A program made the translations under genes and the position numbers. Below, piece by piece: positions 19,329 to 22,447 of a DNA stretch of 64,000 nt. The first letter of the stretch is position 1, and every line of letters starts with the position of its first letter. The stretch is from Escherichia coli. GTDB taxonomy: Bacteria > Pseudomonadota > Gammaproteobacteria > Enterobacterales > Enterobacteriaceae. Below the pieces are notes generated by a model. The model made no database searches, had not been told where the DNA came from, and saw only the letters and a program-made list of their open reading frames with translations. The DNA lies in the NCBI RefSeq assembly GCF_003334815.1, contig NZ_QOWO01000003.1, one strand, 5' to 3'.

Positions 19329-20466
19329 TCAGGCGTCACGCGGTAACCCTTTTTCAATCACCCGAACCAGACGCTGTTTTTTCGGCAATTGCACTTCGAC
19401 TATGCACGCATTTCGTCTCTCTATTTGCTGCGCAATCGCCCACGCTATGTGCTCATCGAGAAGTGGGTGCTCACCTTTACGACTTTCCAGCGCTGTCAAA
19501 ATCGTTTCATCCCAAGGGGCATTGCCTAATGCTACGGCGATATTACGCAGCCAACGCAGGTGACCAATACGACGAATCGCCGATCCTTCCGTGACTTTTA
19601 AAAACTTCTCTTCGCTCCAGGCGAATAACTCAATGAGTTCCGGTGCGTGTAGCGGCTTACGCGGGCTGAAATCCTCTTCTGTGGTGAGTTGTGAATAGCG
19701 ATTCCACGGGCAGATAAGCTGGCAGTCATCGCAACCGTAAATACGGTTTCCCATTAACGGTCGCAACTCTTCCGGGATCGCCCCTTCAAGTTCGATGGTG
19801 AGATAAGAGATACAGCGGCGAGCATCGACGGTATATGGCTCGACGATGGCACCGGTCGGGCAAATCGTCATACAGGCCACGCATTTGCCGCATCCTTCCT
19901 CGACTGGTTGATCCACGGGCAGCGGAATATCGACCAGCAATTCGCCTAAAAAGAAGAACGAACCGGCCTCGCGATTGAGGATAAGTGAGTGCTTACCTGT
20001 CCAGCCGAGCCCAGCTTTTTCAGCTAACGGGCGCTCGAGAATAGGCGCAGAATCGACAAACGGTCTAAAATTCAGCGAAACACAATGTTGCTGAATCATC
20101 TCGCCCAGCTTTTTGAGTCGGTTGCGCAGAAGTTTGTGATAGTCACGGCCCAGCGCATAACGGCTAACATAGCCGAGTTTGGGGTTTTTCAGCGTGCTGG
20201 CAAATGCGGCGTTAGCAGGAAGGTAATTCATCCGCACGCTGATCACGCGCAGCGTACCGGGCAATAACTCATGAGGGCGAGCGCGCAGCATACCGTGACG
20301 TGCCATCCAGTCCATTTCGCCGTGGTATTGTTTGTCCAGCCATGCTTGCAGTTTGGGCTCGGACTCGCTGAGATCGGTATCGGTAATACCTACCTGCTGA
20401 AAGCCCAGTTCCAGCCCCCACTGTTTAATTTTTTGCGCTAACTGATTGAGATCGAGGGGCTCTGAC

Positions 20467-20468
<2 letters not shown>
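19329..20468 (-). CDS. queG: Epoxyqueuosine reductase (4Fe-4S, cobalamin-dependent)
   Basis: 379-aa product [23 protein letters not shown]... with ferredoxin-type Cys motifs (CGKCVACMTICP, CDDCQLICPWN). Confidence 0.93.

Positions 20469-22447
<1,979 letters not shown>

Follow-up and report, generated by a model that had tools for sequence, protein, structure and literature searches.

Do the divergent genes queG and nnr of Escherichia coli really begin on top of one another, and if so, where do the promoters and ribosome-binding sites of the two genes lie? We analyzed the junction in a window of 64,000 nucleotides, that is, the whole stretch of E. coli DNA under study (contig NZ_QOWO01000003.1), and positions refer to this window unless stated otherwise. 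Our best explanation, which we consider likely as a whole, is that queG and nnr form a true head-to-head overlapping pair without intergenic DNA, in which both ATGs of a single CATG are functional.

The start codons of queG and nnr share two nucleotides

The plus strand around the junction reads ...ctctgaCATGacggaccatacaATGaag... / ...gatcgaggggctctgaCATGacggaccatacaATGaagaaaaac..., in which C20466, A20467, T20468, and G20469 form the tetranucleotide CATG. Reverse-complemented, 20466-20468 gives the ATG with which the 379-codon frame of queG begins on the minus strand. On the plus strand, the ATG at 20467-20469 is in frame with the 515-codon frame of nnr, and nucleotides 20467-20468 are common to both start codons. 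The next in-frame nnr ATG is found at 20482. The three features of the junction are as follows.

19329-20468, minus strand: queG, encoding the 379-aa epoxyqueuosine reductase, stop codon included (open reading frame and annotation)
20466-20469, both strands: CATG tetranucleotide containing both start codons with a 2-nt overlap (sequence and RefSeq annotation)
20467-22014, plus strand: nnr (yjeF), 515 codons and a stop when read from the conserved ATG (open reading frame and annotation)

The 5' coding ends of the two genes, on opposite strands, thus share nucleotides, as in other head-to-head overlapping coding pairs. The same two starts with the same 2-nt overlap are given by RefSeq/PGAP in strain 504239, strain S1-SRL-01-C, and K-12 MG1655; in the MG1655 annotation, queG (b4166) occupies 4392928-4394067 on the minus strand and nnr (b4167) 4394066-4395613 on the plus strand. 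Since the window is identical to MG1655 base for base across 19900-20700, maps made in K-12 apply to it directly. The region is present in all 5426 complete E. coli genomes, and the gene neighborhood, that of an E. coli chromosome, consists of rsgA, orn, tRNA-Gly genes, and queG (minus), followed by nnr, tsaE, amiB, and mutL (plus). Within the latter operon, nnr and tsaE overlap co-directionally by 29 nt. The Nnr protein is identical to an entry (P0001) with precomputed Pfam matches to YjeF_N (PF03853) and the carbohydrate-kinase-like domain PF01256, and it aligns with Thermotoga maritima Tm0922 (2ax3) with E = 7e-59. The identity of QueG is given by the RefSeq annotation and by the Pfam matches of its orthologues in related loci (QueG_DUF1730, PF08331, and 4Fe-4S ferredoxin).

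The start of queG is bracketed from both sides. Upstream of its ATG no conserved in-frame start was found among the species compared, and the length of the open frame there varies from 2 to 79 codons between species. Downstream, the frame has no in-frame ATG, GTG, or TTG before Met52, and the N-terminus of QueG aligns with that of QueG from distant gamma-proteobacteria. A GTG at 20576, which would give a 415-aa open reading frame, was rejected, as it lies upstream of the mapped 5' end of the transcript and no conserved start occurs there. The queG ATG is essentially devoid of a Shine-Dalgarno sequence (duplex energy of -2.2 kcal/mol).

Conservation favors the CATG start of nnr over the downstream ATG

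The chance level of such an arrangement in a single genome is about 1 in 4 for a G after CAT and about 1 in 3 for the right frame, and the junction was lined up in 80 species-level Enterobacteriaceae loci. Of the 80, 79 contain the CATG and 75 have its ATG in the nnr frame, and the ten bases that follow the CATG (GACGGACCAT) are almost invariant. At the position of 20482, the codon is of start type in 57 species (ATG 35, GTG 16, TTG 6) and a non-start in the remaining 23 (CTG 10, CTA 7, GAG 4, ATA 1, CTT 1). These 23 species therefore have the CATG start alone, CTG being at best a rare start; in a further relative (L090), the equivalent codon is AAG (Lys). Furthermore, all four Thr codons are used at nnr codon 5 (ACA 34, ACT 9, ACG 6, ACC 2), a synonymous variation that constitutes a coding signature and argues that the frame upstream of 20482 is translated.

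The two candidate starts also differ in their ribosome-binding signals, which are listed here with the second ATG.

20454-20459, plus strand: nnr Shine-Dalgarno GAGGGG, 7 nt upstream of the ATG at 20467 and inside queG codons 4-6 (minus strand CCC CTC GAT)
20482-20484, plus strand: second in-frame nnr ATG (codon 6), not conserved as a start and with a weak Shine-Dalgarno

The duplex with the 3' end of 16S rRNA reaches -7.2 kcal/mol for the ATG at 20467 and -3.2 kcal/mol for that at 20482. The Shine-Dalgarno of the former is nearly invariant across 81 loci, synonymous positions included. PGAP picks the long form of nnr across genera. The few departures from the common pattern are local: in four Kosakonia species, a 1-nt insertion puts the ATG of the CATG out of frame, so these species must start at the downstream ATG; Salmonella enterica subsp. 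arizonae carries CATT and, 3 nt beyond it, a new ATG; and S. enterica subsp. diarizonae and one more locus (L091) read CATGATG. A TTG at 20446 was rejected as an nnr start, having no Shine-Dalgarno (+1.3 kcal/mol) and being absent in several species.

This comparison points to the CATG start at 20467 as the ancestral and prevailing nnr start across species, and it indicates that the start position can move by a few codons within a lineage. The ATG at 20467 is probably the start used in E. coli itself, where the ATG at 20482 may be a minor second start at most. The overlap of start codons claimed by the sequence-only reading is thus present in the sequence, annotated in RefSeq, and in frame in the large majority of species, and the condition that it set, namely that both ATGs are used, draws support from the conservation of the ATG at 20467 and from its good Shine-Dalgarno. 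Its alternative, a start of nnr at 20482, fares less evenly: as a rule it fails on the non-start codons and the weak Shine-Dalgarno, it holds for the four Kosakonia species, and in E. coli it may survive as a minor start.

Two other readings of the nnr start have to be weighed. The long form might be an annotation artefact of longest-ORF choice, with nnr translated solely from 20482 and a 13-nt untranslated gap left between the genes. The ATG at 20482 does exist, an ATG, GTG, or TTG stands there in most species, Kosakonia can use a downstream ATG alone, and short forms of 510 or 502 aa occur among the automatic gene calls in public assemblies. Protein-level support for the five residues at stake (MTDHT) was not found either: the PDB holds no structure of E. 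coli Nnr, and the supplements of Nakahigashi 2016 (tetracycline ribosome profiling) and Giess 2017 (start-site prediction) have no entry for the N-terminus or initiation site of nnr. However, the codon is not a start in the 23 species listed above and encodes Lys in L090, the duplex energies favor 20467, the synonymous Thr variation shows that the upstream frame is read, and MTD also opens Nnr in a relative of only 44% identity (L085). We regard this artefact as very improbable, and even if it were true, 13 nt would be too short for a promoter and the conclusion that the promoters are embedded would stand. It is somewhat easier to imagine, though still rather unlikely, that E. coli initiates at both 20467 and 20482 and makes two Nnr forms differing by the five residues. 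The two ATGs are in frame and separated by only 15 nt, the one at 20482 is preceded at 7 nt by a weak GGA motif, and the lineage has switched easily between starts (Kosakonia, arizonae, diarizonae, and L091). Such dual use is opposed by the free drift of the downstream codon between start and non-start, which implies that no selection keeps it, by the fact that a ribosome initiating at 20467 would cover 20482, and by the data found, in which no second Nnr product was seen.

Published transcripts of the two genes overlap at their 5' ends

With no intergenic DNA at the junction, both promoters must lie inside coding sequence, and published transcript data were used to locate them. Coordinates were converted as window position = U00096.2 position minus 4371622, a relation fixed by the read CAUGACGGACC... 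of Huang et al. 2020 (PMC7373196). In the operon map of Conway et al., an RNA-seq operon mapping cited here as it is tabulated in PMC7373196 (Table S1e), the plus-strand operon has its promoter at 4391701 and its terminator at 4408049. The divergent overlap is given by the same route as 413 nt, 4391701-4392114, corresponding to window ~20079 to ~20492. By these converted positions, the nnr operon would begin about 388 nt upstream of the nnr ATG, inside queG, and the queG transcript would begin within nnr codon 9 with a leader of about 24 nt. The resulting transcript features are as follows.

20079-20492, both strands: region transcribed on both strands, with the nnr leader of ~388 nt antisense to queG codons 1-130, together with the queG 5' end; yields RNase III-cut dsRNA
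20469-20492, minus strand: queG 5' UTR of ~24 nt, antisense to nnr codons 1-9, with no recognizable Shine-Dalgarno and an out-of-frame AUG at 20478 (placed by the Conway end and the p19 read 20485-20464)

According to several published data sets, the two RNAs form duplexes in vivo that RNase III processes. Huang et al. [quoted passage not shown] The J2-antibody dsRNA MS-212 of Lybecker et al., as reported in PMC7373196, spans 4391717-4392100 (window 20095-20478) and belongs to the divergent class. At the level of single reads, paired 21-22-nt reads in PMC7373196 cover the nnr Shine-Dalgarno (20445-20465 on the plus strand, 20463-20443 on the minus strand) and both start codons (20466-20487 on the plus strand, 20485-20464 on the minus strand), staggered by the 2 nt that is typical of RNase III cleavage. 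The overlap of the 5' transcript ends is given by the literature maps and matches the conserved -10 elements described below.

The transcripts of this locus have been noted in other contexts as well. Conway et al. 2014 single out yjeF...rlmB as the operon of greatest complexity in their data set and report overlapping 5' ends in 136 of 388 divergent operons. ExcludonFinder (NAR 2025) has queG-nnr in its set of 16 divergent excludons, seen in no fewer than 50% of 58 MG1655 transcriptomes, and also lists yjeV-queG-nnr as a noncontiguous operon, which implies that some plus-strand transcripts start further upstream than 20079. In vitro, yjeF-yjeE-amiB-mutL is preferentially transcribed by E-sigma70 (Maciag et al. 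2011). No antisense transcription start site of Thomason or Dornenburg is entered for this cluster in Table S1e of PMC7373196, and the locus was unmatched in the supplements of Romero 2014, Cappable-seq 2016, and SMRT-Cappable-seq 2018, which were consulted for independent 5'-end data. A 60-codon upstream open reading frame from 20085, 6 nt after the plus-strand start site, was dismissed as no conserved gene, its length varying between loci (10, 14, 35, 55, 60 codons, and others). An Rfam scan of 18500-21500 returned tRNAs and sub-threshold chance matches, with nothing at the junction.

Frozen synonymous sites match putative promoters embedded in the partner gene

Synonymous-site conservation was measured as the frequency of the same codon where the amino acid is conserved, in codon alignments of 81 loci. 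The mean over the gene is 0.66 for queG and 0.61 for nnr. Against these means, the top 5-codon windows of queG stand at 0.99 (codons 131-135, the highest of any 5-codon window in the gene), 0.97-0.98 (codons 1-8), and 0.96 (codons 156-161). The nnr Shine-Dalgarno and the proximal part of its leader fall within codons 1-12. Codons 12-14 of nnr (AGT ATA CCA, 20500-20508) are among the most conserved of the gene and are 98-100% identical at all nine positions. ATA is the rarest Ile codon in E. coli. Two putative promoters coincide with these frozen codons.

20062-20077, plus strand: putative first promoter of the nnr-tsaE-amiB-mutL... operon, within the invariant block GGTCTAAAATTCAGCG of queG codons 131-136
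20500-20510, minus strand: putative queG promoter, extended -10 TGTGGTATACT, within nnr codons 12-15 (plus strand AGT ATA CCA CA)

The block in queG contains TAAAAT at 20066-20071 (codons 133-135), and its last T lies 7-8 nt upstream of the published plus-strand 5' end. The minus-strand sequence TGGTATACT in nnr codons 12-14, an extended -10, is found in 78 of 81 loci, each of the 11 nt of TGTGGTATACT is at least 97% conserved, and the last T of the element is again 7-8 nt upstream of the published 5' end, here that of the minus strand. The position and invariance of these two sequences suggest that their hexamers are the working -10 elements. A generic sigma-70 consensus scan of 19200-21200 returned 0 promoter-like sites, because both candidate promoters have poor -35 hexamers, which such a scan requires. 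The sequence-only reading had held that, if both ATGs are used, the promoters of the two genes must lie inside each other's coding regions, and the published 5' ends near 20079 and 20492, with invariant -10 elements at the expected distance, bear this out. The conventional intergenic promoter that it named as the observation to the contrary is physically impossible, there being no intergenic DNA.

Not all of the conservation in nnr need be promoter-driven. Part of the AGTATACCA conservation may be protein-driven, because the N-terminus of Nnr often carries an [LI]-P motif. A purely promoter-imposed origin of the S-[IL]-P motif in Nnr was rejected, since motifs of the LPxxLY type recur at this end of the protein in many unrelated settings, and only the codon-level invariance of S-[IL]-P is attributed to the promoter. 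Two further candidates were set aside. A proximal nnr promoter at TTTAAT (20424-20429) is without the key A at its second position, and conservation is low at 20424 and 20427. A sigma-E or sigma-32 reading of GGTCTAAAAT has no -35 match at the required spacing (judged by eye), and the operon is E-sigma70-preferred in vitro. Elsewhere in queG, a further invariant block lies at 19984-19997.

Tight head-to-head packing extends to distant relatives

Relatives of Nnr with 44-50% identity share the queG/nnr-tsaE-amiB-mutL context with very small spacings. The spacing is -2 nt, again with CATG, in L084, whose Nnr is only 50% identical; 6 nt in L085, whose Nnr is 44% identical and begins MTD; 11 nt in L087, after correction of an evidently wrong queG call; and 16 nt in L089. 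From these loci, tight head-to-head packing, which forces the promoters into the neighboring gene, appears to be an old feature of queG-nnr and not a peculiarity of E. coli.

Relation to known overlapping genes and transcripts

Head-to-head pairs, in which opposite-strand coding sequences overlap at their 5' ends as in queG-nnr, are the rarest class of bacterial coding overlap; in the tally of Huvet & Stumpf 2014 for E. coli, divergent overlapping pairs number only 2, against 586 co-oriented and 75 convergent ones. A miscalled start codon is suspected behind many of the divergent overlaps annotated elsewhere, whereas queG-nnr is backed by an ATG that stays in frame across 75 of 80 species and has a Shine-Dalgarno at a suitable position. 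The CATG resembles the co-directional ATGA/TGATG overlaps of 1-4 nt in being very short and involving a start codon. In contrast, those overlaps join a stop and a start on one mRNA and couple their translation, whereas the CATG joins two starts on two different mRNAs, so that ribosome coupling is impossible at it.

At the level of transcripts, queG-nnr shares with the divergent excludons (the concept of Sesto et al.; Conway et al. 2014; ExcludonFinder 2025) its facing promoters, the complementary 5' parts of the mRNAs, and the RNase III-processed dsRNA. It differs from the classical Listeria excludons in that the coding sequences themselves overlap, beyond the untranslated regions. The long antisense transcript of the Listeria systems demonstrably represses the opposite operon, whereas mutual repression in queG-nnr is at most putative. 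The ilvY-ilvC and argECBH systems, cited as precedents by Conway et al., are likewise divergent units with overlapping or face-to-face promoter regions; their promoters occupy intergenic DNA that is dedicated to control and bears regulator sites, unlike those of queG-nnr, which would lie inside coding sequence about 413 bp apart.

A proposed mechanism and its regulatory meaning

In the explanation we favor, nnr would be translated mainly from the ATG at 20467 with a Shine-Dalgarno, GAGGGG, encoded in queG codons 4-6, and two face-to-face promoters about 413 bp apart would each be buried in the coding sequence of the partner. The nnr-tsaE-amiB-mutL-miaA-hfq... operon would have its first promoter, with the -10 element TAAAAT, in queG codons 133-135, with transcription beginning about 388 nt before nnr. 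For queG, the promoter would be the extended -10 TGGTATACT in nnr codons 12-14, which would give rise to the leader of about 24 nt. The two mRNAs are complementary over about 413 nt, including both ribosome-binding sites, and their duplexes form in vivo and are RNase III substrates. As in excludons, and as in the transcriptional interference of convergent promoters, queG and nnr may dampen each other through antisense pairing or RNA polymerase collisions. No experiment on mutual regulation of queG and nnr was found in the literature.

Plain genome compaction is a serious rival to this dampening. The overlap could be the neutral end-point of intergenic shrinkage, a reading we judge quite possible, in which the dsRNA is a harmless by-product and the invariance reflects only that a promoter and a ribosome-binding site have to be retained within coding DNA. 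The spacing in other gamma-proteobacteria varies (-2, 6, 11, and 16 nt), as expected for drift around a compact ancestral junction, overlapping 5' ends are common among the divergent operons of Conway et al. (136 of 388), and no study was found that demonstrates queG/nnr cross-regulation. Weighing somewhat against neutrality are the rank of the pair in the top 20 coding dsRNA clusters of stationary phase, its recurrence in at least 50% of 58 transcriptomes, and the retention of the tight head-to-head layout in distant gamma-proteobacteria, none of which proves a function by itself. At the other end, the zero-length junction might be a conserved reciprocal switch in which queG and the nnr-tsaE-amiB-mutL-miaA-hfq superoperon limit each other via RNase III and colliding polymerases, a role that would account for its retention across gamma-proteobacteria, with the block at 19984-19997 as a possible extra control site. 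We consider such a switch doubtful; if it were real, it would set queG, which carries out the last step of the queuosine tRNA modification, against a superoperon for t6A and i6A tRNA modification and Hfq.

The queG-nnr pair is already known: annotation, overlapping transcripts, and dsRNA are all published, the pair has been named an excludon, and no new question is opened here. What is added is the comparative case for the start at 20467 and a set of synonymous sites whose freezing fits the embedded -10 elements and Shine-Dalgarno, which is a refinement and not a new kind of system. The locus offers a clean, well-supported example of the rarest bacterial gene overlap, in which a -10 element, a Shine-Dalgarno, and a start codon can be written into the codons of a neighbor and frozen at synonymous sites family-wide. 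For experimental work on either gene, synonymous changes meant to be "silent" would likely alter the partner gene if made in codons 1-12 or 131-135 of queG or in codons 12-14 of nnr. A clean queG deletion would take out the first promoter and the ribosome-binding site of nnr, and a deletion of the nnr 5' end would take out the queG promoter. Knockout phenotypes could thus be misread, because deletion of one gene removes signals of its partner.

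Conserved blocks within queG and nnr

Codon alignments of 81 Enterobacteriaceae queG/nnr loci enabled us to locate the positions at which codon choice is constrained beyond the encoded protein.

19984-19997, inside queG codons 156-161: block AAGTGAGTGCTTAC, invariant across the 81 loci
21986-22014, plus strand: 29-nt same-strand overlap of the nnr 3' end and the tsaE start

In the queG block, synonymous positions are conserved too, and codon identity (use of the same codon where the amino acid is conserved) is 0.96, while queG as a whole averages 0.66. The block lies about 85-95 nt on the upstream side of the plus-strand transcription start of the nnr operon mapped in K-12 (~20079), and no promoter, palindrome or RNA family was found to account for its conservation. 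Binding of a regulator or an sRNA might be its role. More synonymous-site peaks were identified in the interior of nnr at ~21544-21570 and ~21646 (codons ~360-368 and 394), where codon identity is 0.95-0.99 against a mean of 0.61; these could mark one of the reported internal promoters of the tsaE-amiB-mutL part of the operon. The final nnr codons are completely conserved at the codon level, which is consistent with double duty as the tsaE start region.

Signals and small frames near the queG-nnr junction

20478-20476, minus strand: out-of-frame AUG in the queG 5' leader, 10 nt before the gene's own AUG
20085-20267, plus strand: 60-codon ORF antisense to queG, starting 6 nt past the mapped plus-strand transcription start
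20451-20454: GATC (Dam methylation) site directly upstream of the nnr Shine-Dalgarno sequence (GATCGAGGGG)

The leader AUG opens a 17-codon frame overlapping the queG start, and the CCAT giving rise to it is kept in most genera and absent from Buttiauxella. His4 of nnr is encoded by these very bases, so the AUG may be incidental. The antisense ORF differs in length from species to species (values include 10 and 60 codons) and is therefore probably not a gene. The GATC is almost invariant across genera, probably a coincidence of doubly constrained sequence; as a counterpoint, mutL lies downstream of this site in the same operon as nnr.

The queG 3' end, the tRNA-Gly genes and a relative's locus

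19293-19346, plus strand: yjeV, annotated 17-aa gene (MRFYFYSQAVDESGVTR)
18872-18947 and 18984-19059: two tRNA-Gly(GCC) genes between orn and queG

Convergent yjeV overlaps the queG 3' end (at 19329) by 18 nt. In ExcludonFinder (NAR 2025), yjeV-queG appears as a convergent excludon, and yjeV-queG-nnr is among the three "noncontiguous operons" given for E. coli, an arrangement that implies plus-strand transcripts running antisense through all of queG.

Between orn and queG, the window carries only two tRNA-Gly(GCC) copies, compared with three in K-12 MG1655 (glyV, glyX and glyY); strain 504239, otherwise matching the window, has three with different spacing. The tandem array looks like a case of copy-number variation.

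In a relative's locus on a JGI metagenome contig (L090), the called product at 1501-2982 is a fusion of a YjeF_N and a MutL_C domain, with a Band_7 (hflK-like) gene coming directly after it, which suggests that tsaE through hflX were removed by a large deletion or misassembly.
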